A stretch of 64,000 bases of DNA, from assembly GCA_000004985.1 (NCBI GenBank), contig GG738863.1; one strand, given 5' to 3'. Below are positions 1 through 64,000 of the stretch, one piece after another. The position numbers and the translations under genes were made by a program. The notes below the pieces were generated by a model. It ran no database searches. It had not been told where the DNA came from and saw only the letters and a list, made by a program, of their open reading frames with translations. The stretch is from Naegleria gruberi. Its lineage: Eukaryota. Each line of letters opens with the position of its first letter. The first letter of the stretch is position 1.

Positions 1-151
1 TAGAGGCAATAGCGTTATCCAAACTAGCAAGATTTTGCTTCTTCTCAGCCAAGATTCCCACAGCATTAGATTGTTGAGCACTAACCGATGTAATATACAT
101 CATCATCATGAGCACAGCAGCTACAACAAGGGCAACATTAAATTTGAACAT
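1..151 (-). CDS. 5' end of a secreted or membrane protein (signal peptide), partial; runs off the window start
   Basis: Reverse strand ATG at 151-149 in an A-rich context. It encodes MFKFNVALVVAAVLMMMMYITSVSAQQS..., a hydrophobic signal peptide followed by open frame to position 1. Confidence 0.35.
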   Translation of the reverse strand, partial: MFKFNVALVVAAVLMMMMYITSVSAQQSNAVGILAEKKQNLASLDNAIAS

Positions 152-524
152 TTTTTAATGATGGTTTTTAAAATAAACTAAGAAGCCTCAATGAATGGCC
201 TTGACCCACTCTCTCATTCTCTAAAAGTCAATTGTTTAAGATTTTTAACAGACCAAATCTATTACAGTTACCAGTTTATGTGATCAGTTACTGGAAAATA
301 TTAATTCTAAATGTTTACAGCACACCAAGAACAAAGGTCTAACACTATTATTATAATTACAAAGCACGGAAGAAGAATAAAACCATCAACCATTAATAAT
401 CAAAATGTGTGATGAATATTCATTATCCAAACCAGCAGTTGGTGATGAAGATGACGAACAAAGAAATTCATCACCACTCACACAAAGAAAAAAAGTTCTC
501 TAATACAATCCAAAATATAAAACA

Positions 525-2482
525 ATGAGTTCATTCCACTGGAAATTGTTGAAGGAAAAGTTTCTCTCACCAACAGAAACCATTAAAAAGACTGTATTTA
601 CTATTATTATGGTAAATGATGTGTATGAAATGCTTCCGTAGGTTTATTGATAATGAAATATTTGTATTGATTGTATTTTCTTCATCAACCATTCTTGTCA
701 TGTTTAAATTCATTTGTGGATTTCAAAATGTTTAATGTTTAATTAATTAATACGATATATTATATTTAAATCAAAATATTTAAAATTGATGATGATCAAA
801 ATATTGTCCGATTTTAGAGATAACGATGGGTTGGGAGGATTGGCTGAATTACAAACCATCATCGAACAGGAAAAGTTCAAGAGTAGACATTGTATTGCCA
901 CATTGAATGGTGATTTTATGAGTGCTTCAACATTGGCCACTAAGTATAAGGGATATCACATGATTGATATTTTGAATCATATTGATTTGTAAGTAGAGAG
1001 TGATGATTGCTTTCGGAATAATGTAATGTGGAAATTTTTGTTGATAATTTGTGAAATAGAGATTATGTCACTTTGGGAAATCACGAATTTGATTTTGGAA
1101 CTCCAAATGTTTTGGAAAAGGTCAAGGAATCTAGATTCAAGTGGATTTGTTCAAATGTAGTTTGTCCTGATGATCATAGTAAGGTTTTACCTGGTTTGAT
1201 TCCAAAGGTTATACATGAATGTGATGGTTTTAGAATTGGTGTTTTCGGTGTTTGTACAAAGAATACTGAATACTTGTCAAGACCAGGTAAGTTATTGACC
1301 TAACCTATATTGATTCATATTATTCTTAGGTACTGAGGCTGTATTTTTGCCAAGTGTTACTGTTGCAAATAAGATGGTTAAGGAATTGAGAGAGGAAGAT
1401 AAGTGTGATGTTGTCATTGCTTTGACCCATCTTACTATTGGAGATGATAGAGAATTGGCAAGAAATTGTCCAGGAATTGATTGTAAGTTATTAATATGAT
1501 TATTGATTCATATATATTTCAGGTATTTTAGGAGGTCACGACCACACACCACATTCACAAGTACAAGGTAGTTGTTTCATTCATAAGGCAGGTCACGATG
1601 CTCAATATGTAACCAGAATTGATTTGTCCATTGAAAAGAAACAAACTCCACTCAATGGAGAAAATCTTGTCCAACTCAAAGTTTTCCCAGGCTGTAACAT
1701 GATTGTAAACAGAGGTTATAAACCAAATCAAAAGGTTTCTGAAATAATTGAAAAGTACATGAAACAATTACCAGAGGGAATTATGGAAGAAATCGGATTG
1801 ACTGTTACTAAATTGGATTCTTCAACAGAAAGTGTCAGATCAAAGGAAACTACTTATGCAAACTTTATTGCTGATATTTTCTTGGATTCATTTGGAGCTG
1901 ATTTGGCCATTATCAAGTGAGTTTTTATTCTAAATTTATTTTACTTACCATTAATACTATCACTTAATATCTCTTTACAATAGCGGTGGAGGTATTAGAG
2001 GAGATAGATTCTATGATATTTCAAAGAGAATTACTCGCTTGGATGTATTGAAGGAATTCCCATTCCCTAATAACATTTCATTGGCAGAAATTAAGGGAAG
2101 TGACTTGATGGAAGTTACAGAACAAGGTGTAGCCAAGGCTGAGTGTGTCATTGGATCTTTCCCACACTTTTCAAGAGGAGTTTGTGTACAATATGACACT
2201 ACCAAGCCACCAATGAAGAGAGTTGCCAAAATGACTCTCAATGGTGTCGATATTGATCCTAACAAGGTGTACAATATTGCAACAGTAACCTATATTCTCA
2301 ATGGAGGTGATGGATTCAGTGCATTCACAAAGGCAACACCAAAGGAACATCCTTTGAATGGAAAATCAGTTTATGATCTCGTTATTGATTGGATTGAAAC
2401 TCATAGAAAGGTTGGAGCCAAGAAGGAAGGCAGAATTTATGATGTTTCAAAGAAGAATTCTACAGCTGTTTTCAATTTTTAA
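525..2482 (+). CDS. 5'-nucleotidase-like calcineurin-type metallophosphoesterase, multi-exon
   Basis: Motifs VNDVYE, GNHEFDFG and GGHDH. Exons are joined by GTAAGT...AG introns at about 989-1059, 1287-1329, 1493-1522 and about 1915-1983. The reading frame is continuous across the ORF-track pieces 786..992, 1073..1303, 1624..1920 and 2039..2482. The first exon (ATG 525, about 525-631) is inferred; the start could instead be the ATG at 786. Stop is TAA. Confidence 0.7.
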
Positions 2483-2967
2483 TTTATTGTGAATTAAATC
2501 TCTCTACAGTTCAATCTTAATAATTCATTCTATCGGACTATTTGTGAAATAGCACAAAGTTAAATTCACGAGTTGACTGAAGACAACATGATGTTTATTT
2601 ATTATCTCAATTAACATCTCTTGATATTAGAGAAAATGCAATTGGTTGTAAGGAGCTAAACATTTAACTGAACACTCTAATCAAAATGATTAAAAACAAC
2701 CACAAACATTTATTACCTTTCCATTTCTTATTCGAATCAATTCAATATTAATAATTAAAACAAAACATCATTATCAATTATAAATATTTTATCTCGAGAA
2801 AACCAAAAAGTTAAAAACTAAATATTACCAAAAATAGACGCACTCCAAAACCAATACAAAAAAAGATCCAACTCCTCCTCTCAACTGTTTGTTCATACGT
2901 TTCTTGTAAACGACAATCTATCATCATCAACAGCCAGCATTAATCTTCTTTACAAATTAATTTCGGA

Positions 2968-4353
2968 ATGCATGCAGTTAATGATCAACAACAATCAATT
3001 AATTTAAATTCGTCATCTTGTGCTTCTTCTAATGAGAAAGAACAGCAACAACCATTAATTCATCTCTTGGAACCATTGAATATTGTCTTGGTCGGAGATG
3101 AAGGTGTTGGAAAGTCCTCATGTTTAATAACCTATTCTGAATTATTAAATAAGAAGAATGATATTACAAAGCAGCAACAGCAACAACAATTGGAATATAA
3201 ATATGATAGAGGATGTATTCCATCAGTAGTTGAGACATTGAGAAGAGAAGTGACCATTCCCAAGACATCACTTGGACATTGTAAATTTGTGAATAGTTCT
3301 GCACTGGATCAATCATTTGATTCAACTCAAAGTTTACAAAATTGTGAAGGTTTTACAATGAATGTAAATCTTATTGATACACCTGGTGAAGAGGATCAAT
3401 CAATGGATAGAGTTCAACATTATTATCCTCATGCCAATGTATTTGTATTAATATTTTCGATTAATGACATTACATCATTTGAGAAATTGGCTGATTATTG
3501 GTGTAAGGAAATTAAGAATGTATCTCCACATCCATGTATGATGATTGTGGGTAATAAGAGTGATGTTGGTTCAGAGGAAAGACACGTGACTCGTCTCGAT
3601 GGTTTGGAAATGCAAAATAAGATTGGAGCTAAAATGTATATGGAAATTTCATCCACGAGTGGAAATAATATTGTAAACATGTTTGATGCTTGTGTGAAAA
3701 TGGGCACTAAAGAACTTGATGGTCGATGCGCTCACTTACTTTACAAACAAAACGATCATTCAATTCATTTGGAACGTCGACATCATCTTCATCCTGAAAC
3801 TCTAACTTTGAATATTCCTCCAAGAGAAACTTTGGCAGCCATTAAGGAAACTCCCTCAATTCCACCATCAACTACGAGTAGCATCAATAGTAGTAGTAGC
3901 AGCAGTTCAGCTTCTCAAAAGGTTGAGACGATTAAGGAACTGAGCTCAACAACCCAATCACTCTGTGCAAAAATTACAAAACAACTTTCATTTGGGACAC
4001 CTCCTATAGTAGAGAAGGAATTTAGATTTGGAGTTGAGCTTTTACCAAAGATATTCCTAGATAATGATCCAGAAGCAGAAGTGTTGAAAAAACTAAATTT
4101 CAAAATTAAGAAAATTGTAAAGGTAAAAATTGATCTCAACATGAATCCGCTCTGTCAAATCAAGAGACAAATAATTGGTGCATTTGGAAAGGAAAATCCA
4201 AAGGTTTGGGGAAGAAAAACTGAAGAGCAATGGTTGAAAACTCTCAAAGTTCAAATATTGGATAACATTTTTAATGATTATTATGATTTGGACGATTGGG
4301 AACAGGTTATTTCTCAAAAGGAGGACAATATCAAATTACTTGTATTTTACTAA
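2968..4353 (+). CDS. Ras-superfamily small GTPase domain protein with polyQ inserts and a long C-terminal extension
   Basis: Single 461-aa ORF. G1 is GDEGVGKSS, G3 is DTPGEE, G4 is GNKSD and G5 is SSTSG. Stop is TAA. Confidence 0.6.
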   Translation: MHAVNDQQQSINLNSSSCASSNEKEQQQPLIHLLEPLNIVLVGDEGVGKSSCLITYSELLNKKNDITKQQQQQQLEYKYDRGCIPSVVETLRREVTIPKTSLGHCKFVNSSALDQSFDSTQSLQNCEGFTMNVNLIDTPGEEDQSMDRVQHYYPHANVFVLIFSINDITSFEKLADYWCKEIKNVSPHPCMMIVGNKSDVGSEERHVTRLDGLEMQNKIGAKMYMEISSTSGNNIVNMFDACVKMGTKELDGRCAHLLYKQNDHSIHLERRHHLHPETLTLNIPPRETLAAIKETPSIPPSTTSSINSSSSSSSASQKVETIKELSSTTQSLCAKITKQLSFGTPPIVEKEFRFGVELLPKIFLDNDPEAEVLKKLNFKIKKIVKVKIDLNMNPLCQIKRQIIGAFGKENPKVWGRKTEEQWLKTLKVQILDNIFNDYYDLDDWEQVISQKEDNIKLLVFY

Positions 4354-4663: not shown

Positions 4664-5122
4664 ATGAGTTTTCTCTTCAGTAAAAAGACCCGAGTTCCTT
4701 CCATTGATATCGACCATGAAATGGATCAGGAGAATCACAAGAATTCCAAACAACAAAAACTTCAATCAACTACAACAACAACATTGAGTCGTGTTCGTTC
4801 CAAGTCTTCCGTTGATAAATTAGATAGTAGTAATAATAATAACAATAACAGCAACAATGAATCATCACAACAAGGAACATCTTCATCATGGAATGTTCTC
4901 GGAAGGGCTAGAGCCAATTCATCTAAACAAAATGCTGATCGTTTTCAAAAGGCTGAGGAAGATTTGGAAAGAGAACACTCTGGAGCAATGACTCACTTGA
5001 AGGAGAAGGGAAAGATTGGAGATTATGAAGATGAACATGAGGAGGAACAACAAGAAAAGGTTTCAAAGAGAAGGTTTAGTTTGAAGAAGAAGAAGAATGC
5101 TGAATTATTGACTGAACAATAA
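4664..5122 (+). CDS. Hypothetical S/N/E-rich low-complexity protein
   Basis: 152-aa ORF with an ATG in A-rich context and a TAA stop. No recognisable domain. Confidence 0.35.
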   Translation: MSFLFSKKTRVPSIDIDHEMDQENHKNSKQQKLQSTTTTTLSRVRSKSSVDKLDSSNNNNNNSNNESSQQGTSSSWNVLGRARANSSKQNADRFQKAEEDLEREHSGAMTHLKEKGKIGDYEDEHEEEQQEKVSKRRFSLKKKKNAELLTEQ

Positions 5123-5488: not shown

Positions 5489-6978
5489 TTACAATTCTTC
5501 ACCTTCATCCAACATGGAATCTTCTTCAGCAACTCCTGAATCCTTTTCCAATTCTTCATAGTCCTTTTCCAAGGCAGCCAAATCTTCACGAGCTTCAGCA
5601 AATTCACCTTCTTCCATACCTTCACCAACAAAGTGATGAACATAGGCACGTTTAGCATATAACAAATCAAACTTGTCATTCATCTTGGAGAAGACTGAAG
5701 CAATGGCAGTAGAATTGGAAATCATTGAGCATGAATTGTCAACTTGAGCCATTTCAGAACCTGGCAACATGGTTGGAGCTTGATTATTGATACCAATCTT
5801 GAAAGCACATGGAGACCAATCAACAAATTGAATACTGGACTTGCTCTTCATAATCTTGACAGCATCACTGACATCCTTATTGACAACATCCTTACCACGA
5901 TACATTAAACAACATGAAATGTACTTGCCACTTCTTGGATCACATTTGGCCATCATGTTATTTGGTTCAAAGACCTTACTAGTCAATTCAGCAGCATTAT
6001 TAGTAGCATAGTATTGTTCAGCAACTGAAACCATTGGAGCCAATGAAGATAACATAAAGTGAATTCTTGGATATGGAACTAAATTAGTTTGGAATTCGTT
6101 CAAATCAACATTCAATGAACCTGGGAATCTCAATGAACAAGTCAATGATGAAACAGTTTGAGCAATGACACGATTCAAATTTCTGTAATCTGGTCTAGCA
6201 ATCTTCAAGTTTTGTTTACAGACATCATAGATAGCTTCATTGTCCAAAACAACTGAAATATCATTATGTTCCAATAAGGAATGAGTAGATAAGACTGAAT
6301 TGTATGGTTCAACAACTGAAGTAGTCAATTGAGGAGATGGATAAATATTGAAACCCAATTTGGTCTTTTTAGGGAATTCAACAGCTAATCTTTCCAAAAG
6401 CAAAGAAGCAAATCCAGAACCAGTACCACCACCAACAGAATTGAAAATTTGGAAACCTTGCAATGATTGACAATTATCAGTAATTCTTCTAATAGTATTC
6501 ATGGCACTATCCAAAATATCCTTTCCAATAGTGTAATGACCACGAGCAAAGTTATTGGAAGCATCTTCACTACCACGAATCATATAATTTGGATGATACA
6601 ATTGTTTGTATTCAGTATTCTTAATGGCATCAATGACAGATGGTTCCAAATCCAAGAACATGGCACGTGGAACATATTTACCAGAAGAAGCTTCGGAGAA
6701 ATAAACAGAAGCATCGTTACCTTGAACAGAATCAGTGGTACCATCAGGTTTGATTCCATGTTCAGCACAGAATAATTCCCAACAGCTGTTACCAACTTTG
6801 TTGAAGAAGATTTTCAAAAATTTAGATTAGAAAAATTTGATGATAAAAAGTGGAGATTGGAAAATGAATCATGTGAATAGATTAAAAATGTTAATATATT
6901 AGAGAATTGTGAAATTAGGTGTTGATAGTTACCTTGAATACCGGCTTGACCAATGTGGAGGGAGACGACTTCTCTCAT
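5489..6978 (-). CDS. alpha-tubulin (divergent), 2 exons
   Basis: Structure is join(6933..6978, 5489..6795) on the minus strand. Exon 1 encodes [15 protein letters not shown], followed by a 137-nt gtaact...ag intron, then [10 protein letters not shown]... through GEEL-TAA. Tubulin signatures GGGTGSG, VVEPYN and the C-terminal acidic tail are present. Confidence 0.9.
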
Positions 6979-7492: not shown

Positions 7493-8451
7493 ATGGGTCT
7501 CTCAGCATCTACCTCTCTTGTCTCTTCACATAATAAGTTTTNNNNNNNNNNNNNNNNNNNNNNNNNNNNNNNNNNNNNNNNNNNNNNNNNNNNNNNNNNN
7601 NNNNNNNNNNNNNNNNNNNNNNNNNNNNNNNNNNNNNNNNNNNNNNNNNNNNNNNNNNNNNNNNNNNNNNNNNNNNNNNNNNNNNNNNNNNNNNNNNNNN
7701 NNNNNNNNNNNNNNNNNNNNNNNNNNNNNNNNNNNNNNNNNNNNNNNNNNNNNNNNNNNNNNNNNNNNNNNNNNNNNNNNNNNNNNNNNNNNNNNNNNNN
7801 NNNNNNNNNNNNNNNNNNNNNNNNNNNNNNNNNNNNNNNNNNNNCGATCAACAAGACACCTATGACAGCAATTTCTTTGGTGTTGATGGTGAAACCAATT
7901 GTAGATTGATGAATAAGAATAATTCAAAGGAACAATATGGTGCTGAAGGTGAATATCATTGGGTAACCATGCCATTCTCTGATGTCAAGTACAAGATGAC
8001 CATCGTCGCTGTCAAGAATCAAGCTCATCAACAAACACTTGATGGATGGGTTGCTCAAAAATTGAATCAAGGAATAGACACTGCCTTCCCAACAGTAGAA
8101 ACTAAACTCGGCTCATTTGCCTTCCCTAAATTCGAACTCTCTCAAGGAATGGAATTGAGCGACATTTTACAAAATGCTCCATTCAACATTAAGAAACCAT
8201 TTACAAATGAGGCCGATTTCTCTCACCTCCTCCAAAAGGAAAGTATCTTTATTGATAAAGTCATTCATAAGGCATCTATTAAGGTTGATGAAGCAGGTGC
8301 TGAGGCTAGTGCAGCAACTGCTATTGTGATGAGATGTTTGAGTTATGATCCAAATGAAATTAGATTTGTGGTCAATTCACCATTTGCATTTGTGTTGACT
8401 GATGATTCTAGTAAGACTGTTCTTTTTGTTGGTAAAGTCAACAAGTTGTAA
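7493..8451 (+). CDS. serpin (serine protease inhibitor), interrupted by an assembly gap
   Basis: The C-terminal 200 aa are open in one frame from the gap edge (7846) to the TAA at 8451. They carry the serpin hinge and C-terminal motifs (IKVDEAGAEASAATA, FVVNSPFAFVL, LFVGKVNKL). The candidate start MGLSASTSLVSS is at 7493 (aaaATGg), just before gap 7542-7844. Confidence 0.65.
7542..7844. other. assembly gap (N run)
   Basis: 303 N. Confidence 1.
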
Positions 8452-8608: not shown

Positions 8609-8679
8609 TGCTTACTAGCTCAGCAGGGAGCGACTAACTTCAGATTAGTAGGTCGGCGGATCAAGTCCACCGTAGGTAT
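8609..8679 (+). tRNA. tRNA-like gene, anticodon UCA (UGA-decoding); anticodon loop resembles tRNA-Trp (CUCCAGA) with C34 changed to U
   Basis: Manual cloverleaf: acceptor 8609-8615/8672-8678 (7 bp, two G·U pairs); U8; D-stem GCTC/GAGC with AG..GG loop; G26; anticodon stem ACTAA/TTAGT; loop CTTCAGA (U33, anticodon TCA, G37); 5-nt variable loop; T-arm GGCGG-ATCAAGT-CCACC with a good B box GGATCAAGTCC; discriminator T; TTTT at 8687-8690. Atypical features are a U1:A72 pair, A54, a C51·A63 mismatch and a 6-nt D loop, so it could be a pseudogene. Confidence 0.5.
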
Positions 8680-8686
8680 CGTCAAA

Positions 8687-8690
8687 TTTT
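8687..8690 (+). terminator. Pol III T4 terminator downstream of the tRNA-like gene
   Basis: TTTT lies 8 nt after the tRNA 3' end. Confidence 0.3.
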
Positions 8691-8749: not shown

Positions 8750-9073
8750 ATGTCATTACAAGAGAGGGAAGATCAGCATGCTATTGCTTCATTAGAGAAT
8801 AATTTACTGGATAAACTTCCTGATGAATTGTTACTTTATATTCTGGGCTACTCGACAAGTGATCCGATCACAATTGTGCAACTCTCGCATGTAAATAAGA
8901 GAATGGAGAGGATTTTGAATTACTCTCCGATTGTTGTTTCTCAAATGATCGAATATCATCATTCTGCTAATCATCAATGGATTAGAGAAGGATACACGAT
9001 TGGAAAATTCTGGGAAAATCCTATTCGGAATGGAATTTCGGTTTTAAAACAATTTTTCAAATTGCTATACTAG
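8750..9073 (+). CDS. small F-box protein
   Basis: 107-aa ORF. The F-box motif is LLDKLPDELLLYILGYS. ATG is in A-rich context. Stop is TAG. Confidence 0.45.
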   Translation: MSLQEREDQHAIASLENNLLDKLPDELLLYILGYSTSDPITIVQLSHVNKRMERILNYSPIVVSQMIEYHHSANHQWIREGYTIGKFWENPIRNGISVLKQFFKLLY

Positions 9074-9135
9074 CTACTAGTGGACGAAAGAGGAAGAATG
9101 AAAAATCCAATGGGCATGATGATGATGAATTAATT

Positions 9136-10044
9136 GTGGACAAGTATCAAAATGTGAGGAAATATGTGGATTCTAAACAAAAGATTGTTGATTGTTTAAA
9201 ATATTCAAGATGGAATCCAATTAAGAAACTTAGAAAGATTGAGGACTTGACAACTGTCTTTGAACGAAGGCATATGAATAAGGTGTTATTTATGATTGGT
9301 ACTATGTTTTCAATGACAGCACAATTCATTGTGGGAAAGATTGGGAGCACACCAAATGACCAATGGTCTTTGGAGAAGGGTTTATGGTGGCTTCCATATG
9401 CATTCTGGCCTTTTGAAGGAGCTGTAGTGGGAATTATATTAGCATCAATGACAATTTCCATCTTTTATTCATGTAAATGTATCAGTTCATTAATTGTTAA
9501 ACCTGACAAGAAACTACGGTCGCAGGATATCAGTGTTGTTTACATGGCACCTATTTCATCAATATTTTACACCACTACTTGGAGACCTATGTTGATTTTA
9601 ATGAGATCTCTCCTTTATGAAACTGTTGGGGTTGAACTCTCCCTGCTGGAATCCATAGTAAGCAAATTATTTTATTATTCTCATTATCCTGGCCTTGCAT
9701 TCTTGGGGATTTCCTGCTTTTCTTCCTCTGTTAACTCAATTACAGACAAATTAGCTGATCCTACTTTGGGGTCTTTTATTTCCCTTTCTCTGTTCAAGTA
9801 TAGTGGAAATTTATTGAGCTTTATCCCACTTTCTCTCAGTTTATGCTTTGCGTCAATTAAGGAGATTATATCAGATATCAAATCACCAGACAAGGTGGAC
9901 CAATTTATACCTATGGCTCTATCTATTAGTACAGCTTTGGTTAGTGTTGGTCACTTCTCATATCTCACTCTTGCTCCTATTTCTTTAATGTTTGTTGGTT
10001 TAATGATTGATTCGTTCAGACCAAACAGATATCGTAACCTTTAG
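9136..10044 (+). CDS. multi-pass membrane protein, hypothetical
   Basis: 302-aa open frame with several hydrophobic helices. The ORF-track start is non-ATG. The first ATG in frame is near 9274 (MNKVLFMIGTMFSM). Stop is TAG. Confidence 0.4.
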   Translation: MDKYQNVRKYVDSKQKIVDCLKYSRWNPIKKLRKIEDLTTVFERRHMNKVLFMIGTMFSMTAQFIVGKIGSTPNDQWSLEKGLWWLPYAFWPFEGAVVGIILASMTISIFYSCKCISSLIVKPDKKLRSQDISVVYMAPISSIFYTTTWRPMLILMRSLLYETVGVELSLLESIVSKLFYYSHYPGLAFLGISCFSSSVNSITDKLADPTLGSFISLSLFKYSGNLLSFIPLSLSLCFASIKEIISDIKSPDKVDQFIPMALSISTALVSVGHFSYLTLAPISLMFVGLMIDSFRPNRYRNL

Positions 10045-14809: not shown

Positions 14810-14872
14810 AAACCGTTGCCGCTTTTTTTTCAAAAAGCTAACCGTTTAGTTTAATTTAATCACAAAAAAAAG

Positions 14873-51091: not shown

Positions 51092-52026
51092 TTATTGTGA
51101 AAGTTCATTAAGGTAGGGAAAGACATACTTGTGGAATGGCTGATGTCTTTTGAGGTAATCTAATGGAGTTTCTCCATTGATATCTTTTGCTTGAACGTCG
51201 ACATTGTATTTGAGGAGGAGAGGAATGAGACACCATCTTGTGGCTATCATGCAGATTTGATGGAGAGGAGTGATTCCTTCATTGTCAGCAATATGAATCA
51301 AGAGAGGCTGTTTTTCAATAATGGTAACAATTGAATCACTGGTAATTCTTTGATTTTCAATTGCAAAATGGAGTGCAGTGGCTGATAGAATCTTTGTTGA
51401 TTTGACTTTTAGCGATTTTTCCAACAAGCTCTCAGGAGGTAAATAATTCAGAATGTATGAGAATGCAACACCATCCATACCATCACACATGATATTTACC
51501 AAGTTTGTTTGGAAATGTTGATCAGCATAGAAACCGTATTGGAAAGGTTTGAATAATTCAACCTTCTCCTCAGGAGAGCAGTGTTCGCAAAGGAAGGCCA
51601 TTAATCTACAATTCTTATTGGTATTAATAATGGTGGCCAGGTTTGTTTTCAATTTTGGAATATCTAATTTACACAGATTTTGTTTTAATAAACGTGACCA
51701 GTGATCCAACAATACTTGTCCAAAATCAGGTCCCAAACATGAGAAAATTTGTACTACTTGGTTTGAGATATCCCACCCACTATGAATTAATAGAGCTACA
51801 TTTTTCTCTGATAAATTTTGGGTACTACTCAAGAAAAGCTCACCATTATGATAAGTATTACAGAGATAGATAAAATATTGTAATATAGCAAACTTTCTAG
51901 GAGTAGAAACAAAATTGGCCAATTGGTCATCGATATTTAAAACTACATGAAATAAGATATCGCTAAGAATAAATACTTACTGGCTGGAGGATATCTGGTG
52001 AGGACAAAAGTGGCAATATCTTTCAT
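51092..52026 (-). CDS. ankyrin-repeat protein
   Basis: Structure is join(51981..52026, 51092..51942). A 38-nt GTAAGT...TAG intron joins MKDIATFVLTRYPPA to ...LNIDDQLANFVS.... Ankyrin repeats are near the C-terminus (GITPLHQICMIA...NGETPLDYL). Stop is TAA. Confidence 0.55.
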
Positions 52027-53578: not shown

Positions 53579-53906
53579 TTTTTTCAAAGTGAATAATCAG
53601 CAACAAGGTAATGATGACTACATTTTTTGATATTAATTTTTTGTAGTGTTACGATTTTTTTCGTTTCCTCCAATACCTTGAAATTCTTACCTTGAAACAA
53701 TATATTAAATAATATTGTTAATATTTAATTGAAGAAAAGAAAACCTTACAAGAAGAATCATCATTTTGAACTTAAATTTAGAAGAGTGATGCTCCTTCCA
53801 TTTATCTTCTATTGGTAAGTCATTAAAAGAAAAAGCCTCCATTAGCAGAATCCTCACAAAATTCACATTAAAAAATGTACAATACCCAACAACAATCTTC
53901 CCCGCA

Positions 53907-56439
53907 ACAACCAAGACTTTCATCAAAGGTTGAATTGCACATTTCATGCAGAGGATTGAAGAATGTGAGTTGTTTATGTGAAGATTTGCAATTTAATAAT
54001 TATTCGTTAATTTGTGATGATTTTGTTGATTTTATTAAATGATCATCTAATGATGATTTTATTAAATAAGATGGATTTACTTTCAAAGTCAGATCCAAAG
54101 GTTTTAGTTTATGCAGGATTTCCTCCGAATAATCCACAATACGTAAGTAAATAATTAGAAATTTCTAGAAATATTATTGGAAAGGCTTGGAAATTATTGG
54201 GCGAAACTGAATGCATCAAGGATAATTTAAATCCAAACTTTTCAACTACTTTTACAGTTGAATATTGTTTTGAAGAACTTCAACACTTGAAATTCTGTGT
54301 CTATGATATTGATAATAATACTGCCACATTATCGGATGATGATTTTATTGGAGAGACAACTACAACACTAGGTGAGTATTGAAATCTTAAGAGTTTAGAT
54401 ACCAATTTATTGAATTAAAATACAGGTGAAATTTGTGGAGCTAAAGGACAAAAATTAATTAAACATCTCTATGCCAAGGGTTCAAAGGTTTCAAGAGGTA
54501 CCATCATTGTAACTGCCGAGGAAGTTAATTCAAATGCCACTGATGATGTGGAAATTGCCTTGGCAGGTGTTACACTTCCAAAGGTATGTGTTAAATAATT
54601 TCACAGAAACTTATTCTACAATTTATTATTTAATCTTACAATAGATGGATTTTTTTGGAAAGGCAGATCCAGTACGTAATTAGTTATTAGCAGATTTATC
54701 TAACATTTGTCAAGTTTTATGTTGTACAAAAAGCATCTGAAAGTGGTCAATTCCTTTCAGTTTATCAATCTGAAACCATCATGAATAATTTAAATCCAAT
54801 TTGGAAGCCAATGCGAATTTCTTGTGCCAAATTGTGTAATGGAGATTATCATAGAAGTTTGAAAATTTCTGTATACGATTGGAATAAGCACTCTGCTCCA
54901 GATTTTATCGGAGAGGTTGAAACTAATTTGGATGCTCTTCTTAAGGCTAGTGTTTCTCTTAAACTACAAAATCCAGCAAAGAAAAAGGGAAATCATGGCG
55001 ATCTTATTGTCAAGTCCTCCAAGATTACTAAAAATCCAACCTTCTTGGAATTTTTGGCAGGTGGAATGAAAATGAACATGTTGGTTGCAGTTGACTTTAC
55101 TGCTTCAAATGGTCAACCAGAATTACCTCAATCTTTGCACTACAATAGACAAGGACAAATGAACCAATACGAACAAGCTATTAGATCTGTTGGACAAATT
55201 ATTTCTGACTATGATAGCGACAAATTGTTCCCATCTTTTGGTTATGGAGGATATTTACCAAATGGTATTACATCACACTGCTTTGCTTTGAATGGTAATC
55301 CACAAAAACCAGAATGTTTTCAAGTTGACGGAATTCTTCAAAGTTATAGACAAGCACTGTATACCGTAAAACTTTCAGGACCAACTCATTTTGCTCAAAT
55401 TATCAAAACAGCCTGTCAATATGCTTCTGTTCCAATAAGTCAATCAAACCAAGAATATTTTGTCTTGCTCATTTGTACTGATGGTATGATTAATGATATG
55501 CAGGAAACTATTGATCAAATAATTGAAGGATCAGGACTCCCACTTTCAATTATTATTGTTGGTGTTGGTGCAGCTGATTTCAGCTCTATGGAAACACTGG
55601 ATGGCGATAATGCTGCCCTCAGATCTGGCCGTACTGGAAGAACAGCTCTTCGTGATATTGTCCAATTTGTACCATTTAACAAATTTGCATCAATGCCATT
55701 TACTGCTCTCAGTAAGGAAGTTCTTGCTGAAATTCCAACCCAAGTAACTCAATTCATGAAAATGAAAAATTTAATGCCAAACCAAAGAGTAGTTATTCAG
55801 GAATATGTTCCACCTGAACCAAGCACTCCATCCACCACAACTACTCAAATGTATCCAAGCAATGATCCACCAAGAGAAAGAAGTATGTCAGAAAGTTTCA
55901 ATCCAAATACTTCCAATTCCAATCTTAATTCCATTCCAAACCAAGTTCCACAACAAGGTATTCCACAACAACAAGTTCCACCAACTTATGGAGTTCCTCC
56001 TCAACAAGGTGGTTATCCACAACAGGGTTATCCTCAACAACCAACTGGTCAACCTCAACAATATCCTCAACAACAAGGTGGTTATCCAATGCAACCTCAA
56101 CAATTTGGTGGATATCCTCAACAGCCTGTTGGTGGACAACCTCAACAATTTGGTCAACAAGTTCCACCTCAACAATATGGCCAAATCCCTCCTCAACAAT
56201 ACAGTCAAGTCCCTCCACAACAAGGTTACCCACAACAAGGTGGATATCCACAACAGGGTTATCCTCAACAACCAACTGGTCAACCTCAACAATTTGGTCA
56301 ACAAGTCCCTCCACAACAATATGGCCAAATCCCTCCTCAACAATACAGTCAAGTCCCTCCACAACAAGGCTATCCTCAACAAGTCCCACGTAATCCTCAA
56401 CAACCTGAAAATCCAACCATCCCTCAATACAAAATTTAA
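53907..56439 (+). CDS. copine (two C2 domains plus a vWA domain) with a long Q/P/Y-rich C-terminal tail
   Basis: Six exons are joined by short GT-AG introns (about 53997-54070, 54145-54186, 54367-54423, 54582-54642, 54671-54767). C2 motifs are [34 protein letters not shown] and NNLNPIWKP. The vWA block is [13 protein letters not shown]. Stop is TAA. Confidence 0.8.
56011..56400 (+). repeat. tandem duplication (~231-bp unit repeated about 1.7 times) encoding the [39 protein letters not shown] tail of the copine
   Basis: 56011-56241 and 56242-56400 are near-identical at the nucleotide level. Confidence 0.55.
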
Positions 56440-57047: not shown

Positions 57048-59006
57048 ATGAAGGTAACGCCCGCAGGAAGTAATCATTTTAATAATAACACTCAATCATC
57101 ATCATCCTTTCTCAGTCGACTCTCTTATATGAGAGCCTTTGAGGAAGCAATTCCAAACCAAACAGCAGGAGGGCTGTTCAACACAGGAAGAGGATATTGC
57201 ATCGATTCAATATGTTCCATCAAGGCTTTTGTTATTATGTTTTTAGTTTTGACAATATTCATCACTTGCGTTGTGATTTGGATTATTATCATGGTTTTAA
57301 TATCATCACAGGTGGAAATAACAATGGCAATCGCCTCAATAATTGTGTGGTGTACATTTGTTGTATCGATCACAATCTTCTCTATACTATTAGCAGTGGG
57401 GGTACACTTTTTGATAAAAAAGCCACTATTTGTACTAACAAGACAACTTGGTACCATGAAATCACTCCGATTTGATGCAATCCAAAAACTTTCCTCAATT
57501 CTCTATGAATTCATACCACTCTATGTGGCCTTTAATGAATTGAATAATTTAATGAAGGATATAAGGCCCTTCATTCCAGAATCCATTACAAGACAATCTG
57601 ATGAAGAAGTACTGGACTTGGATGAAGAAGAACGGAGAAACAAGCAAATGATCGAAATGAGAAAGAAATTAATGCCAATTGCTAAGAAAATTGCAGCTCA
57701 ACAGAAACCAATTACAAAGGTAATAACGGTACAGAAATCAAAATCGAGAGTTGATTTGAACACTCTCAAACCAAACATTAATGAGCAAAAGACAAACGAA
57801 CAAAAACCAGTTGAATCAATAACTCCACAACAAAAACCACAACAACAAACGCCAATGGCAAGTTCATTATTGGATCCAAACTTGGAGGAGAGGCCAAACT
57901 CTGCAGTGGACAAATTAAGGAACGCAGTTTCCAAGGCAGTTGCCAAAGCAACAAAACCAAGAATCGAAGGTTCTCTCTCTTTGCAAATCAATGTCAACCT
58001 TCATGATAATATGTCTGAAGTTAGTAGTGTCTTTAATTCTTCAAGAGAGTTTGGCTCCAACTTGGGAAGTGGATTTTCACCTGAATTTAAAAAAAATTTT
58101 GGGTTAGGGTTGACTTCACACATTACAACAATAATTATTATTCAATTTAGAAACTTTGACGGAAAGAGTTATCCAAATACTGCAGATTTATTGTCAGTAT
58201 TTACATTGCTTTTCCAAAAAGTCCAAAGCGTTAGCAGGCAATTCAGAGGAAGAACGGCTATCATCACTCCAAAGGTTCTCATGATCAGTTTTGAAGTTGG
58301 TAAAAACGCGGAAAGAAATGCCTTACTATGTGCTCTTCAATTAGAAAAACAAATGCAATCAGTCAATACACAGCTCACAGAACAGGTAAATCTTCCCCCA
58401 GTAGAATTTGGAATTGGTGTTTCGAGGTCTGAATGTTTGGTGGGTAATATTGGTACGGCTGCTGTGAGATATTCTGCATTGATTGGAGCTTGTTCAAGCA
58501 ATGCATTGCGATTAGCTGCTCTGTGTGCATACTTTGGTACTTCAATTCTTACCGATGAGTCGCTAACGCTTGCTCTTAACATTGGTTTCATTACACGTGC
58601 TGTCCACTTTATGCACAAGAAATCAATCCTTGATGAAAAATTGTGCCTCGATGATGATGATGTGAATAAGCAAACAATTTTTCAATTGTTGGGCGAGAGA
58701 AAGATTTTGGATGATGAATGGTTTTACGAAATTCAACAACAAGAACAAAATAACTTGTATAAGGAATTCGATCAAGCATTTGAATTATTGAGAGGAGATG
58801 TTAACATGACCTTGTTGAAAGAAATATGTGGAGTGTTTGAAGCCTATTCAAGTAAGCATCCAACTGATAAGGTTGTTTCATTGCTTTATGCTCAATTATC
58901 AAAATATTTACAATATGATGCTGAAGAAGTTGTGGAAGCAATAAGAGCCTTTAGTTTAGAAAAGACCGATATCCCACTTCACACTGATCCATCATTCATT
59001 CTTTAA
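57048..59006 (+). CDS. membrane-anchored class III nucleotidyl cyclase homology domain protein (possibly catalytically divergent)
   Basis: ATG at 57048. Two N-terminal TM helices are followed by a cyclase-homology-like region (IIQFRNFDGKS...ECLVGNIGTAAVRYSALIGACSSNALRLAA). The Asn-x3-Arg is retained, but the canonical metal-binding Asp positions appear substituted. Stop is TAA. Confidence 0.45.
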   Translation: MKVTPAGSNHFNNNTQSSSSFLSRLSYMRAFEEAIPNQTAGGLFNTGRGYCIDSICSIKAFVIMFLVLTIFITCVVIWIIIMVLISSQVEITMAIASIIVWCTFVVSITIFSILLAVGVHFLIKKPLFVLTRQLGTMKSLRFDAIQKLSSILYEFIPLYVAFNELNNLMKDIRPFIPESITRQSDEEVLDLDEEERRNKQMIEMRKKLMPIAKKIAAQQKPITKVITVQKSKSRVDLNTLKPNINEQKTNEQKPVESITPQQKPQQQTPMASSLLDPNLEERPNSAVDKLRNAVSKAVAKATKPRIEGSLSLQINVNLHDNMSEVSSVFNSSREFGSNLGSGFSPEFKKNFGLGLTSHITTIIIIQFRNFDGKSYPNTADLLSVFTLLFQKVQSVSRQFRGRTAIITPKVLMISFEVGKNAERNALLCALQLEKQMQSVNTQLTEQVNLPPVEFGIGVSRSECLVGNIGTAAVRYSALIGACSSNALRLAALCAYFGTSILTDESLTLALNIGFITRAVHFMHKKSILDEKLCLDDDDVNKQTIFQLLGERKILDDEWFYEIQQQEQNNLYKEFDQAFELLRGDVNMTLLKEICGVFEAYSSKHPTDKVVSLLYAQLSKYLQYDAEEVVEAIRAFSLEKTDIPLHTDPSFIL

Positions 59007-59236: not shown

Positions 59237-60874
59237 TTACAATCCTTCATTTCTATCGAGATACATGTCGAGCTGATCTAATTGATCATCAGTAGCAAAT
59301 TCTGACAGAACCATATCTACCATTTTGAAATTTCCAGCTACAGCATCTATGATTGGCTGGTTGGTTTGAATGAATGTATCTTCCAAATATAATTTTCTTA
59401 GTGTGTGATTTTGTTTTACAATCTTTACAATAGAGTCCACAGATTCGTCGTCAATACGTGCATTAAAACTCAAATCTAACTCTTGAAGGCAAGTATTTTC
59501 GAGAATTGCATTCGATAACTCTTCAACATCATCGTTTGAAATATTCTTGTTTTGTAAATTTACAGATTTGAGCATTGGGTTATTCTTTTTCAATTCCTCA
59601 CAAATAACTCTAACATTACCATCCTTAATCAGTCTTTGAAGAATGATCATTTGTTGTCTTTCCTTTTCCTTTCTGAGCTTTTCAGCTGCTTCTTGTTCTA
59701 AACGTAATTGAGCCTCTTCACGTTTCTTCTTTTCTGTGACTTCAATTTGTTTGATTTGTTCATCCATCTTCTCTACCTCTGACTTTGGCAGGTAGATTGG
59801 ATAAATATTCTTTATACGTTCCTTCATGAGTTCAATTTCGTAAGGTTGTAAGAATTTCTCTGGATCTTTTTGTTTTTCAATGAGAAAGTTCAGGCTCGAG
59901 TTGAATTCTGTTCTCTTTGAGGATTGATTATGATTCAAATCTTTAGCTTGCTTCAATTCAGTCTTGAGCATGGAAACAAGTGACATTTTAGATTCTACAG
60001 ATTTGATCCACTCTCCTAATTTTCCAGATTCATTCATTTCGGACATGAGATTGGCAAATTGTTGGGATAGTCTTTCCTTTTCATCATCGAGCTCCTGTTT
60101 TGCTCTTCTATCTTCTTCTTCTTCTTGTAAACGTTGGAGACGAATCCTTTCTTCAACTTCCTTCTTTTTGGCTTCTTCGATTCTTTCCCTTTCCAATCTA
60201 TTTTCTTCTTCAATTCTTTCCAATTCTTTTTGTTTTCTTAATTCTTCTGCCTTTTCCAATTCAGCTTGTTCTTGTTCTCTCTTCAATGCAGCTTCTTGTT
60301 CCAATTTACGTTGTTGTAACATTAGTGACGAGTCAGATTGCTGAGAGGATTGATCTCTGGCAGATTTTTTAGAACGTGTGGAATCCAAATCAGAATCAGA
60401 TTCATCCATGAGCATTTTCATCTTTTCTTCCAATTCCTTCTTCTTTCTCAATCTTTCCTCAATTTCTCTTTGATGTTCCTCTTCACGTTCCTTATCTTCT
60501 TGTTCAGATTTAGCTTTCAATTTTTGGTAGAGGGACATTTGTGAATCGGAAAATCCTGGAACGTTTAAACCAGGCACTGGGGAGTGAGTACTATCTGTCA
60601 CAGATGCACTATCTGTCGAATGAGTATGATGATGAACTGTTGAAGCATTATTTGTAGATTCAGATGTCATTGAATCAGTATCCTCGTGTGTTGATTCATC
60701 TGTTGCAGTATGACTGTTATGAGTAGTTTCCTCTTCGTGTGTTGTTGAAATATTATTGGCTGTTGGGGTTGGACTGTTATCATTAACAATTTTTGAAAGG
60801 AGTTGTGGATCTTCTGGTGCTCCAGAGAATAAACTATTTCCTCTCTTTCTTTCAAGATTTTTCAAATCTGCCAC
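59237..60874 (-). CDS. E/K/R-rich coiled-coil protein with a C-terminal RNI-like leucine-rich repeat cap
   Basis: 545-aa open frame with no in-frame ATG near its 5' end. The frame stays open about 60 nt further upstream without a start codon. Stop is TAA. Confidence 0.45.
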   Translation of the reverse strand: MADLKNLERKRGNSLFSGAPEDPQLLSKIVNDNSPTPTANNISTTHEEETTHNSHTATDESTHEDTDSMTSESTNNASTVHHHTHSTDSASVTDSTHSPVPGLNVPGFSDSQMSLYQKLKAKSEQEDKEREEEHQREIEERLRKKKELEEKMKMLMDESDSDLDSTRSKKSARDQSSQQSDSSLMLQQRKLEQEAALKREQEQAELEKAEELRKQKELERIEEENRLERERIEEAKKKEVEERIRLQRLQEEEEDRRAKQELDDEKERLSQQFANLMSEMNESGKLGEWIKSVESKMSLVSMLKTELKQAKDLNHNQSSKRTEFNSSLNFLIEKQKDPEKFLQPYEIELMKERIKNIYPIYLPKSEVEKMDEQIKQIEVTEKKKREEAQLRLEQEAAEKLRKEKERQQMIILQRLIKDGNVRVICEELKKNNPMLKSVNLQNKNISNDDVEELSNAILENTCLQELDLSFNARIDDESVDSIVKIVKQNHTLRKLYLEDTFIQTNQPIIDAVAGNFKMVDMVLSEFATDDQLDQLDMYLDRNEGL

Positions 60875-60949
60875 AAATTTACCAAAATCTTTGTTTTTCT
60901 GAATTTGTGTTTCTCTTGTGTAGGCATCTAATTACGAATTATTAGAAAT

Positions 60950-61819
60950 TTACATTATTCGAAACAACATACCCTTATAGAATTTTAACAATAATTTAGC
61001 ATCTTCATCACCATTCAGGGCCATATTTTGAACATCCATTGCCAAGGTATAGGATTTTCTTCCACTTCTTCTTCTGAGAGCAACTCTTTCCTCACTTATA
61101 CCTCTCTCATGATGTGCTTCGGCAGCAGTTGATTCTCCACCAACACCAACACTGCCTGGTTGTGATTTACTCACTTCAGACAAATCCAATTTTCCCAACG
61201 AATTTCCACCCATCAAAATTGCATGTGATTTAGAACCCTGTTGATGTGTTGCTGTTTCAAATGATGAATTAATATCACCATCATCCGAATCAGAATCTTC
61301 ATCCATCTGTGAGTCCTTTCTCTTGAAAAAGTCAAAGATACTCTTTCTACGTTTCTGATGTCTTCTTCTATTGGTATTTCTACTTGGTGAGGAATTATTG
61401 GATGATGATGTTGCTGCTGAAGTATTATTCGAAACATCTCCCTGTGAGTGATTCAATGATGAGGAATTTGCTGTTGAAACAGCAACATGATGTTGTTGAC
61501 TGTGAGAACCAGCAATTGTATTACTTCTTGGCGTTTTACTGCTGCTTGGTATTTCGGAGGATGATATTTCAGAGGAGGAATTGTGAATGACTGGAGAGGT
61601 TGTGGTTGTTGTATTGGAACGTGGTGAAGCTATGAAAGCAACAGATTTTCTTCTGTCTTTTTCATTGGTGACTTCCTTCTTTTTGAATAGTGACTTGATG
61701 CCAACCATTTTTAAGTAGTGTACTAGGCTGTTATGGAGAGAGCTAGTGAAGAGGGTTGGCAGGTGAAGGTTTGTTTTTTTATTTTTTTTATTTTGAAGAT
61801 AAGTTTGATTGGTTGACAA
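60950..61819 (-). CDS. hypothetical S/T/N-rich protein
   Basis: 289-aa ORF with TAA stop. A probable start is MVGIKSLFKK at about 61711. Confidence 0.4.
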   Translation of the reverse strand: MSTNQTYLQNKKNKKTNLHLPTLFTSSLHNSLVHYLKMVGIKSLFKKKEVTNEKDRRKSVAFIASPRSNTTTTTSPVIHNSSSEISSSEIPSSSKTPRSNTIAGSHSQQHHVAVSTANSSSLNHSQGDVSNNTSAATSSSNNSSPSRNTNRRRHQKRRKSIFDFFKRKDSQMDEDSDSDDGDINSSFETATHQQGSKSHAILMGGNSLGKLDLSEVSKSQPGSVGVGGESTAAEAHHERGISEERVALRRRSGRKSYTLAMDVQNMALNGDEDAKLLLKFYKGMLFRIM

Positions 61820-61955
61820 GTACCTCAGATGGTGTGCATTGAAGTAAATGGGGTATTCGATAACTTTTTAGGGTCATTAAGAGTGCCATGGATTCGAATC
61901 AGTTATTCGATACAATATAGGAATGTTCTGTTAATAAATGTGTAATGTTAAAAAT

Positions 61956-63050
61956 TTAATTCATTCTTACGAGATTGGAATCAACAAGGAAAACTTTACA
62001 AATGAGGGGACCTTGGATTGTGTAGGCAATCTTTTTGTAAGGACGCCAACGAAGACCAACAGAATGTTTACCTTGAGGGAGCTTGGCAGTAACGTAAGAA
62101 ATTGGTTGTGTGAAGGCAAACTCCAATCTTGAAATTTTGACTTCTGACATTTCTACAAATTCAATACCTGAAAGAGCTGGGTGTGGTTTTTGGTTGACTC
62201 CATCCAAGACAATTACATAATCACCACAAGAGTCTGCAATATAATATTCAATTAATAAATTTCCTTCTCTTGGTACATCAATTTCAACAATTGATGATGG
62301 AATAACTTGCATTTCTTCAATTCCTGGATTTGCAGTAAAAAGTGGTTGATTGGTATTCTTCACATGGAGAGCAAGTAATTGAATTCCATTAATATTACTA
62401 GTAGATGAAGGAGTAATTGTTGGTTGTTGAAGAGAAGGAATAATTGGATTAATTACTGGTGATTGTTGTTCTTTAACAATTGGAATAATTGGTTGTTTTT
62501 GTTTTTCAATAGCAGATCCTAATTCTTCCAATCGAAGATGACAAGCAGTAATCAAATCATCCAATCTATAAAAACGAGCCTCGGATTTTAATCTGAGTAA
62601 TTGTTTTACAGTCAAATTATTAATACTAAGTTCAGGAACCTTACTATATCTAACCCAATCCAAAATTGCTTCAAATAATTCACCATTCAAATCAACAAAT
62701 AAATTTCCTGTTTCATCATATCCGAAATAATCACCAAATGGAAAACTTTTATCATTAGATTGATTGATAGATTGAATTGTTTGGAATGGGTTTGATTGTG
62801 TTGTTGTATTTGGTTTTCTACTCTTTAACGTTGGAATATTATTCAATTCTTTAAATATTGGGATGGATTTTAAAGTCTTGATGGTGGTTACAAATTTTCT
62901 TCCACCAACATTGATCTCTACTGATTCACCCGAAGGTTGAATAGATGACGGTGATGAGGAAGAAGGTGGTTGTTGAAGAGGTTGAATAGTTGGTTGTGGT
63001 TGATGTGATGGTACAATAGGATTAAAACGCTGAAGATTGAAAGGATCCAT
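61956..63050 (-). CDS. BTB/POZ (T1, K-channel tetramerisation-type; KCTD-like) domain protein
   Basis: ATG in aaaaaaaATGg context. A P/Q/S-rich N-terminus is followed by VEINVGGRKFVTTIKTL...LFEAILDWVRYSKV. Stop is TAA. Confidence 0.6.
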   Translation of the reverse strand: MDPFNLQRFNPIVPSHQPQPTIQPLQQPPSSSSPSSIQPSGESVEINVGGRKFVTTIKTLKSIPIFKELNNIPTLKSRKPNTTTQSNPFQTIQSINQSNDKSFPFGDYFGYDETGNLFVDLNGELFEAILDWVRYSKVPELSINNLTVKQLLRLKSEARFYRLDDLITACHLRLEELGSAIEKQKQPIIPIVKEQQSPVINPIIPSLQQPTITPSSTSNINGIQLLALHVKNTNQPLFTANPGIEEMQVIPSSIVEIDVPREGNLLIEYYIADSCGDYVIVLDGVNQKPHPALSGIEFVEMSEVKISRLEFAFTQPISYVTAKLPQGKHSVGLRWRPYKKIAYTIQGPLICKVFLVDSNLVRMN

Positions 63051-63196
63051 TTTTTTTAATTATAATTTTATAAAAGATAATTTTCATCATCTAACTTTGA
63101 AAAGCAAACTCTTATTATTAATCCTTGTGCTGTTTTGAGAACTATTGGCCATGTTACATTGATGAGTTAGTTTATAAAGATGACTTTACAAAAAAA

Positions 63197-64000
63197 ATGT
63201 CAAGACTTGATCAATTGCCTGTAGAGGTTATGGATGAAATTGTTAATTTTCTGGCTGATTCCAATAGTGATGTAATTAATTTTTCATCATGCAGAAAGTC
63301 TATCAGAGAGGAATTACTTGAATCAAATGTATTGGTAATTTCATTGAAAATTTCTTCCGATATTAGAAAGGTGGGGAATATGAATTTGAAAAGATTGAAA
63401 GCAATAGAAAAGAAGAAGAATCAAGCAAGCAAAGAATATGAGATTAAACAAGAGGAGAAGGAAACTAAAAAGAGAAAATTTGATGAATATATTACACAAG
63501 ATAAGGAAAATCAATATATAACTCGCTATAACAAGGAAGAGGATAGAGAACCACTCGTCCAAATTAAAAAGGCCTTCTCATTAATAGATTACCGTAAACG
63601 AGAATCTAATACAGCATTTCCAGGGTATGAGTTTGAGAAATTACTAATTACTCAAACTCAGAATAATATGAATGTCTCTAAAATATTTACAAAGAAAATT
63701 GATGCAATTATTGAAACTCAAGATATCAAGAAATATTGGACTCGTCTACTGAAAGACTATTTTTATTTTGAATGTGGAGAGGAGAATTGTAAAATTATTG
63801 TTAACTGTGTTTTTCAAAAGGTTGAATATACTTCTTGGACCTTTAGGAAGGTGTATGATACCTATCCAAGCTTTGTCATTCATAAGGGAAAATTTAACAT
63901 TGAATCGGATAATTTTTCATTTAAATCACAGGAAAATGAGGAAAGTAAGTTTCAATTTAGCATATTTCTTAAATTTTTATCAGAAGGAGGAAGTTGGCGA
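63197..64000 (+). CDS. F-box protein, 3'-partial (open to the window end)
   Basis: ATG at 63197 in aaaaaaaATGt context. The F-box motif is LDQLPVEVMDEIVNFL. There are 268 codons with no stop up to position 64000. It is absent from the ORF track because no stop is reached. Confidence 0.5.
   Translation, partial: MSRLDQLPVEVMDEIVNFLADSNSDVINFSSCRKSIREELLESNVLVISLKISSDIRKVGNMNLKRLKAIEKKKNQASKEYEIKQEEKETKKRKFDEYITQDKENQYITRYNKEEDREPLVQIKKAFSLIDYRKRESNTAFPGYEFEKLLITQTQNNMNVSKIFTKKIDAIIETQDIKKYWTRLLKDYFYFECGEENCKIIVNCVFQKVEYTSWTFRKVYDTYPSFVIHKGKFNIESDNFSFKSQENEESKFQFSIFLKFLSEGGSWR

Follow-up and report, generated by a model that had tools for sequence, protein, structure and literature searches.

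Protists of the Dictyostelium discoideum type end about 90% of their genes in TAA, use TGA and TAG rarely and carry no stop codons within their reading frames, and in AT-rich protists with the standard genetic code TGA is depleted at gene ends to well below its frequency as a triplet in non-coding DNA. Other lineages have reassigned UGA, to tryptophan in Blepharisma and Blastocrithidia and to cysteine in Euplotes; these lineages lack genes that end in TGA, carry many in-frame TGA codons where tryptophan or cysteine is conserved and, in some cases, have a cognate or adapted transfer RNA (tRNA) that reads UGA. Here we compare with these systems the stop codons of 64,000 nucleotides (nt) of Naegleria gruberi DNA (contig GG738863.1, assembly GCA_000004985.1; the window is this whole stretch), for which a sequence-only reading had proposed that no gene ends in TGA and had pointed to a tRNA gene with anticodon UCA at position 8609.

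The window resembles the Dictyostelium type in its roughly 90% TAA, its rare TGA and TAG and its lack of in-frame stops, and it resembles AT-rich standard-code protists in the depletion of terminal TGA, with no difference found. With the UGA-reassigned lineages it shares the lack of any TGA-ended gene, and it contains a tRNA(UCA) gene, for which decoding of UGA is only putative; unlike them, it has no in-frame TGA among the codons counted, and its sister species terminate genes with TGA. The tRNA has the anticodon of selenocysteine tRNA (tRNA-Sec) but, at 72 nt with a 5-nt variable loop, neither the length of about 85–95 nt nor the long extra arm. Genes predicted as suppressor tRNAs (tRNA-Sup) in eukaryotic genomes usually score low and derive by mutation from ordinary tRNA genes, and the window's tRNA is like them in being a single-copy, low-scoring gene with a stem mismatch and a stop-cognate anticodon in a standard-code genome. 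We are largely confident that the window reflects a strong TAA preference of an AT-rich protist under the standard code, with no code change. A very TAA-biased genome like that of Dictyostelium, which the sequence-only reading had set beside code change as the alternative, gives the best fit.

Terminal and in-frame TGA in the window

After correction for exons and frameshifts, the window contains 33 gene ends, of which 30 are TAA, 3 are TAG (10042–10044, 16365–16367 and 49995–49997) and none is TGA, so the earlier count of about 33, 4 and 0 was essentially right; a mechanical scan of ATG-initiated open reading frames (ORFs) of at least 120 amino acids (aa) had given 34 TAA, 3 TAG and 7 TGA before correction. 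Stop triplets in 11.7 kb of non-coding DNA, read on both strands, number 758 TAA, 287 TAG and 578 TGA, and at this TGA share of 36% the probability of finding none in 32 ends is 8e-7. The next in-frame stops in the 3′ flanks of the same genes are TAA in 17 cases, TGA in 8 and TAG in 7, that is, TGA forms 8 of 32 secondary stops (25%) compared with 0 of 32–34 primary ones (P = 0.002–0.005, Fisher test). TAA makes up 91% of gene ends versus 47% of non-coding stop triplets and 53% of next in-frame stops, and TAG makes up 9% of gene ends versus 18% expected. The specific under-use of TGA as a primary terminator relative to neutral expectation is real, and avoidance of TGA at gene ends, as proposed from the sequence, is supported by a frequency far below both local composition and downstream in-frame stops. 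Judged by the window alone, TGA could stand at no more than about 8–9% of N. gruberi gene ends (95% upper bound). Of 34 genes, 29 have A (16) or T (13) directly after the stop codon, and just one has C.

Within coding frames, TGA, TAA and TAG each occur 0 times in 14,780 codons, while the other two frames contain 364 and 754 TGA; UGA is not a sense codon in the genes of the window. The coding frames hold 102 TGG codons (91–102 across counts), together with 137 TGT and 41 TGC (178 cysteine codons in total), and the A-ending share of the R-ending codon pairs checked (AAR, GAR, CAR, UUR and AGR) is 47–87%. Since A-ending codons are common and TGG codons number about 100, reading UGA as tryptophan would be expected to give about 100 or more in-frame TGA. 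The genes for tubulin, ARL3, copine, TCF25, serpin and a small GTPase have full reading frames free of TGA, and a search through the window's conserved proteins found no in-frame TGA at conserved positions, in line with the earlier statement that UGA is not a common tryptophan codon here. When only TAA and TAG were taken as stops, no in-frame TGA in the window had coding-like sequence on both sides, and the window thus contains no candidate selenoprotein or read-through gene. These counts show that TGA is missing from the reading frames and is used too little at gene ends.

The window has a G+C content (GC) of about 32% (32–34% in the comparison with relatives) and six gaps of N (N-gaps), and GC at third codon positions (GC3) of its coding sequence is 28.5%. 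An AT-rich genome of this sort (about 32% GC, coding GC3 about 28%) would push gene ends towards TAA, which would also be the most efficient terminator; TGA, as the stop most prone to read-through, would be selected against. Quite generally, TGA is the stop codon that is used least or leaks most. Under this scheme TGA would still terminate translation and would encode selenocysteine (Sec) in a few genes bearing a selenocysteine insertion sequence (SECIS), and it would stand at only a few percent of N. gruberi gene ends, a frequency at which finding none among some 33 genes would be no surprise. We infer both that selection against leaky termination is the cause and that TGA ends few genes across the whole N. 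gruberi genome.

A regular role for UGA in the genus is consistent with published work. Selenophosphate synthetase SPS2 and the Sec machinery are reported for Naegleria (PMC4561486, citing da Silva et al. 2013), as is a large thioredoxin reductase in which a pre-terminal UGA is predicted to encode Sec (PMC8038987). Because SECIS-dependent recoding of UGA as Sec is reported in Naegleria, UGA would have its normal dual role there and not be unassigned. The proposal that UGA is unassigned or rarely reassigned found no support, as no in-frame TGA has coding sequence to either side of it, TGA ends genes of relatives at conserved C-termini and Sec recoding is reported. A literature search of full texts and supplements found no published N. 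gruberi stop-codon frequencies or eRF1 alignment.

Gene ends and apparent TGA stops

The window is N. gruberi nuclear DNA, which very probably is ordinary in using the standard genetic code. ORF 5489–6661 (−) is 100% identical to the NCBI alpha-tubulin of Naegleria gruberi, a protein placed on a contig of 467,654 bp, and a further 11 ORFs are identical letter for letter to annotated proteins of N. gruberi NEG-M (EFC45340, EFC45341, EFC45344, EFC45347, EFC45348, EFC45349, EFC45352, EFC45353, EFC45461, EFC45465 and serpin P0133). Introns are few and short; two were confirmed, of 49 nt and 51 nt, with the boundaries GTAAGT...TAG. The stop codons and other features are listed below by position and strand, 'exact match' meaning identity to an annotated protein.

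2480–2482 (+): TAA, multi-exon 5′-nucleotidase-like gene, last exon 1955–2482 (PF02872)
4351–4353 (+): TAA, small GTPase EFC45340 (exact match)
5120–5122 (+): TAA, EFC45341, 152 aa (exact match)
5489–5491 (−): TAA, alpha-tubulin (100% identity to N. gruberi alpha-tubulin P0001)
8449–8451 (+): TAA, serpin (P0133, 180 aa, 100% identity and coverage; PF00079)
8609–8680 (+): tRNA-like gene, anticodon UCA (ARAGORN; Rfam tRNA in a local scan)
10042–10044 (+): TAG, F-box gene 8750–10044 with an intron (coding signal, domain match)
10081–10083 (−): TAA, gene running from 12793 to 10081 with a GTAAGT..TAG intron at 12181–12133 (exon continuation)
14807–14809 (+): TAA, LRR gene across N-gap 14042–14625
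16365–16367 (+): TAG, ORF 14850–16367 (coding score 129)
17473–17475 (+): TAA, EFC45344 (exact match)
17618–17620 (−): TAA, true end of a frameshifted, presumably transposase-like gene (P0260 contiguous over both frames)
19701–19703 (+): TAA, LigB-family dioxygenase gene
21470–21472 (+): TAA, membrane-protein gene 20180–21472, whose intron 20671–20721 holds an apparent TAA at 20672
27259–27261 (+): TAA, large RGS-domain ORF 21973–27261 across a 2-kb N-gap
27374–27595 (+): unannotated 73-aa ORF with a TGA end, unsupported as a gene (coding score 19.6)
28665–28667 (+): TAA, EFC45347 (exact match)
28690–28692 (−): TAA, DUF913/UBA (HUWE1-like) gene
34045–34047 (−): TAA, Drf-like gene; at the orthologous stop, N. 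lovaniensis has TAA and N. fowleri has TGA
36811–36813 (+): TAA, ARL3, EFC45348 (exact match)
37830–37832 (+): TAA, EFC45349 (exact match; C-terminus ..MF before the stop kept in N. fowleri-group contigs)
38654–38656 (−): TAA, retrotransposon pol gene (reverse transcriptase and RNase H)
42384–42386 (−): TAA, EFC45461, gag-like ORF with a 14-nt overlap with pol (exact match)
44981–44983 (+): TAA, RabGAP-TBC gene
45228–45230 (−): TAA within GTAAGT, ORF 45228–46256 (neither spliced nor unspliced product annotated)
48343–48345 (+): TAA, TCF25, EFC45352 (exact match)
49995–49997 (+): TAG, EFC45353 (exact match)
50051–50053 (−): TAA, ORF 50051–50986 (coding score 101)
51092–51094 (−): TAA, ORF 51092–51976 (coding signal)
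52193–52195 (−): TAA, ORF 52193–53578 (coding signal)
56437–56439 (+): TAA, copine gene, exons from 53875
59004–59006 (+): TAA, ORF 57048–59006 (coding signal)
59237–59239 (−): TAA, LRR gene (stop also present in L002, a contig 99% identical)
60950–60952 (−): TAA, ORF 60950–61867 (coding signal; L002)
61956–61958 (−): TAA, BTB gene EFC45465 (exact match; L002)

There is no supported TGA-terminated gene in the window. Five of the seven TGA-ending ATG-ORFs of at least 120 aa cross N-gaps; of the remaining two, one reads the copine gene in an alternative frame and the other lies antisense to the LRR gene. The shorter ORFs that show coding signal and end in TGA, at 1314–1499, 1507–1920, 53872–54042 and 54155–54382, are internal exons of two multi-exon genes, and the TGA of 1507–1920 and of 54155–54382 sits within a GTGAGT splice donor; the apparent TAA stops at 12173 and 20672 sit in GTAAGT donors, and both ORFs run on into the next exon. 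Stops of this kind often arise from GTGAGT and GTAAGT donors, which means that unspliced transcripts would terminate at once and that naive ORF scans misassign stop codons. Donor-derived in-frame TGA or TAA triplets, at the exon end or a few nucleotides off it, lie at 1918–1920, 54380–54382, 12173–12175, 20672–20674 and 45228–45230. For ORF 45228–46256 (−), a hypothetical 37-nt intron, with which the gene would end in TGA at 45179–45181, was rejected as implausibly short next to the confirmed 49 and 51 nt and as unannotated. ORF 27374–27595, the sole free-standing TGA-ending ORF with weak coding signal (score 19.6), was also rejected as a TGA-ended gene because it is not among the annotated proteins and has no Pfam match.

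A further candidate, ORF 17953–18238 (−) with TGA-TGA at 17950–17955, was rejected as the product of a frameshift, the real end being the TAA at 17618. With the ORF of the following frame as query, a search of 1.8 billion representative proteins found a 238-aa protein (P0260), which matches the TGA-ending ORF over residues 50–141 (E = 5e-19) and the following-frame ORF ending at 17618 over residues 139–231 (E = 6.5e-11); since this protein is unbroken over both frames, the two window ORFs are one frameshifted gene. The split gene (17618–18238, −), which we take from its motifs to be transposase-like, adjoins the N-gap at 18239–18438 and is either a pseudogene or the result of a 1-nt assembly error near the gap. 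Its motifs resemble those of piggyBac, but a piggyBac-like identity was dropped, as Pfam gave no match.

Stop codons in relatives

In place of further N. gruberi DNA, loci from N. fowleri, N. lovaniensis and Willaertia magna were sampled, with the following gene ends.

N. fowleri (loci L001, L003, L006 and L009): TAA 26, TAG 4, TGA 6 (6/36)
N. lovaniensis (locus L005): TAA 5, TAG 3, TGA 1 (1/9)
Willaertia magna (loci L008 and L010): TAA 21, TAG 2, TGA 1 (1/24)

TGA is a rare but genuine terminator in these relatives. As judged from their C-termini, two of the N. fowleri TGA stops, those of PSF1 and of a Drf-like gene, are demonstrably genuine. N. fowleri PSF1 aligns to the last residue of yeast Psf1 (208/208) and has one more residue before its TGA. 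The Drf-like gene is syntenic with the window gene at 34045–35559, and the C-termini read ..NIVMQQ-TGA in N. fowleri, ..NNNIVQ-TAA in N. gruberi and ..NIQQQQ-TAA in N. lovaniensis; such a swap of TAA and TGA at a conserved C-terminus within one genus is as expected of two functional terminators. The annotated TGA stop of another N. fowleri gene (L003 10887–11369, VFQX01000030.1) was rejected as a 1-nt homopolymer frameshift: relative to L004 4253–4732, its A-run differs by 1 nt, which throws the reading out of frame, and the other frame of the L003 gene holds the conserved C-terminus ..RRKS..MF-TAA that N. gruberi EFC45349 also has. This TGA end is likely an assembly or annotation error and was left out of the 6/36 above; because it proved to be a frameshift, other annotated N. 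fowleri TGA ends may be artefacts.

The TGA share is 4% in the Willaertia loci (23–27% GC) and 17% in those of N. fowleri (36–37% GC), so TGA use appears to rise with GC, and N. gruberi (32–34% GC) would be expected to lie between the two. If TGA stood at 4% of gene ends, the probability of finding none in 32 would be 27%; it falls to 19% at 5%, 7% at 8%, 2.4% at 11% and 0.3% at 16.7%, and for 32–34 ends and frequencies of 4–8% it is 6–27%. The window does not differ from Willaertia (P = 0.43), and its comparison with the pooled relatives (8/69) is borderline (P = 0.053). Set against related species, the zero TGA of the window is not clearly more than chance.

The gene order Drf-like, ARL3, small ORF, copine, LRR is common to the window at 34–61 kb, N. 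fowleri (L003) and N. lovaniensis (L005). A retrotransposon at 38654–43367 (−) sits between the ARL3-side genes and the TBC gene, and the N. fowleri and N. lovaniensis loci lack it at the syntenic position; its gag-like ORF of 327 aa (EFC45461) overlaps a 1247-aa ORF for reverse transcriptase and RNase H by 14 nt, and both end in TAA. In Willaertia magna (L010), TCF25 adjoins copine. Synteny with these relatives is thus kept in part; the alpha-tubulin gene is relocated. The annotated N. lovaniensis ARL3 (L005 10001–10423) has 140 aa and a TAG end, compared with 185 aa for the N. gruberi and N. fowleri orthologues, and its gene model probably has a missed intron or is truncated. A 4.2-kb contig labelled as metagenome (L002; ENA ERZ929261, PRJEB11402) is about 99% identical to the window at 59.2–63.3 kb, so a public metagenome assembly includes DNA of another strain or haplotype of N. 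gruberi. The three genes on L002 likewise have TAA ends.

The tRNA(UCA) gene and the alternatives

The sole tRNA gene found in the window by ARAGORN lies at 8609–8680 (+). Its 72 nt fold into a standard cloverleaf with a 7-bp acceptor stem containing U1-A72 and two G.U pairs, a 4-bp D stem, a 7-nt anticodon loop CU-UCA-GA, a 5-nt variable loop, a 5-bp T stem with one mismatched pair (C.A), a T loop reading AUCAAGU (with A54) and U as discriminator base. A and B boxes are recognisable in the sequence, and a TTTT run follows 7 nt downstream. A local 500-bp scan with the Rfam tRNA model gave 42.1 bits (cut-off 29); the gene is absent from the output of the whole-window Rfam gathering scan. ARAGORN labels the gene tRNA-SeC, and this identity was rejected: the anticodon UCA fits, but a tRNA of 72 nt with a 5-nt variable loop, and so with no long extra arm, cannot be tRNA-Sec, and the 9/4 geometry and 6-bp D stem of eukaryotic tRNA-Sec are lacking (T stem 5 bp, D stem 4 bp). 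The acceptor helix could be extended to 9 bp (G8607-C8680 and A8608-U8679), which by itself would not make the tRNA Sec-like and is regarded as coincidence. Two degenerate patterns run against JGI metagenomes and one against IMG/VR returned no matches to relatives of this tRNA, no further copy occurs elsewhere in the window or in the Naegleria and Willaertia loci compared, and the roughly 170 kb of Naegleria and Willaertia DNA compared contain no tRNA gene of any kind. U73 and G37 presumably recall tRNA-Cys, which serves as a lead and not as a test of identity. On the most economical reading, this would be a low-activity or decaying gene with a mutated anticodon. The UCA-anticodon tRNA on which the sequence-only reading leaned thus stands as a real tRNA-like gene; it is not a Sec tRNA, and its function is only putative.

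Directly upstream lies the serpin gene (7845–8451, +), for which no orthologue was found in other Naegleria species. Its nearest relatives are metagenome serpins at 31–41% identity, and the gene may be a lineage-specific acquisition. A giant-virus origin of the serpin–tRNA region was rejected because the serpin has no viral relative.

Several observations weigh against a simple TAA preference under the standard code. The window differs nominally from N. fowleri (0/32 versus 6/36, P = 0.026), so that either TGA use is lower in N. gruberi than in N. fowleri or its absence here owes a little to luck; the window contains no TGA-ended N. gruberi gene, and we infer UGA termination in this species from its relatives; and the only tRNA gene in 64 kb has an anticodon cognate to UGA, which we treat as a coincidence. 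If the first of these were pure sampling luck, with TGA at 10–20% of N. gruberi ends as the 6/36 annotated ends of N. fowleri would suggest and none in the window by chance, zero in 32 would have the 0.3% probability given above for 16.7% or the 2.4% for 11%; as one annotated N. fowleri TGA was a homopolymer artefact and the lower-GC Willaertia has only 1/24, we consider this very unlikely. An unassigned or reassigned UGA in N. gruberi, whether read as tryptophan as in Blepharisma and Blastocrithidia or as cysteine as in Euplotes, would account both for the lack of TGA-ended genes and for the UCA anticodon, but it can hardly be correct. With no in-frame TGA among the 14,780 codons versus 102 TGG and 178 cysteine codons, and no TGA flanked by coding sequence on both sides, regular UGA reassignment is already untenable; moreover, the 11 ORFs predicted with TGA as a stop equal annotated proteins exactly, conserved proteins of sister species end at TGA, and published work reports that the genus recodes UGA as Sec (PMC8038987, PMC4561486).

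A milder alternative is that UGA termination is leaky: tRNA(UCA) would be expressed, possibly charged with cysteine or another amino acid, and the resulting read-through would select against TGA with UGA not becoming a regular sense codon. The complete cloverleaf with its canonical 7-nt loop, the score above the cut-off (42.1 versus 29 bits), the recognisable A and B boxes and the TTTT run are consistent with this, as is the stronger depletion at gene ends of TGA than of TAG, although TGA triplets are twice as common as TAG in non-coding DNA. However, the low score, C.A mismatch, two G.U pairs, unusual U1-A72 and A54 fit a decaying or anticodon-mutated copy, the gene is missing from the whole-window Rfam scan and has no relatives in the JGI metagenome or IMG/VR pattern scans, and TGA is similarly scarce in Willaertia and also rare in N. 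fowleri and N. lovaniensis, none of which needs such a tRNA to explain it. TGA is, besides, the least-used or leakiest stop generally. We therefore regard leaky termination through this tRNA as unlikely, and we are still more doubtful that a functional, non-Sec, opal-decoding tRNA(UCA) makes UGA partly read-through, such that the near-absence of terminal TGA would mark an early or intermediate stage of stop-codon capture while the code is still standard.

If the TAA preference under the standard code is the correct explanation, N. gruberi joins the AT-rich protists that end about 90% of their genes in TAA and use TGA least, and the finding matters little beyond this; it serves as a reminder that scarce TGA among a few gene ends is no sign of a changed code. 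Should tRNA(UCA) prove to be expressed and charged, N. gruberi would be a culturable, free-living amoeboflagellate in which the onset of stop-codon reassignment could be studied, with a standard code, selenoproteins and a second UGA-reading tRNA together in one system.

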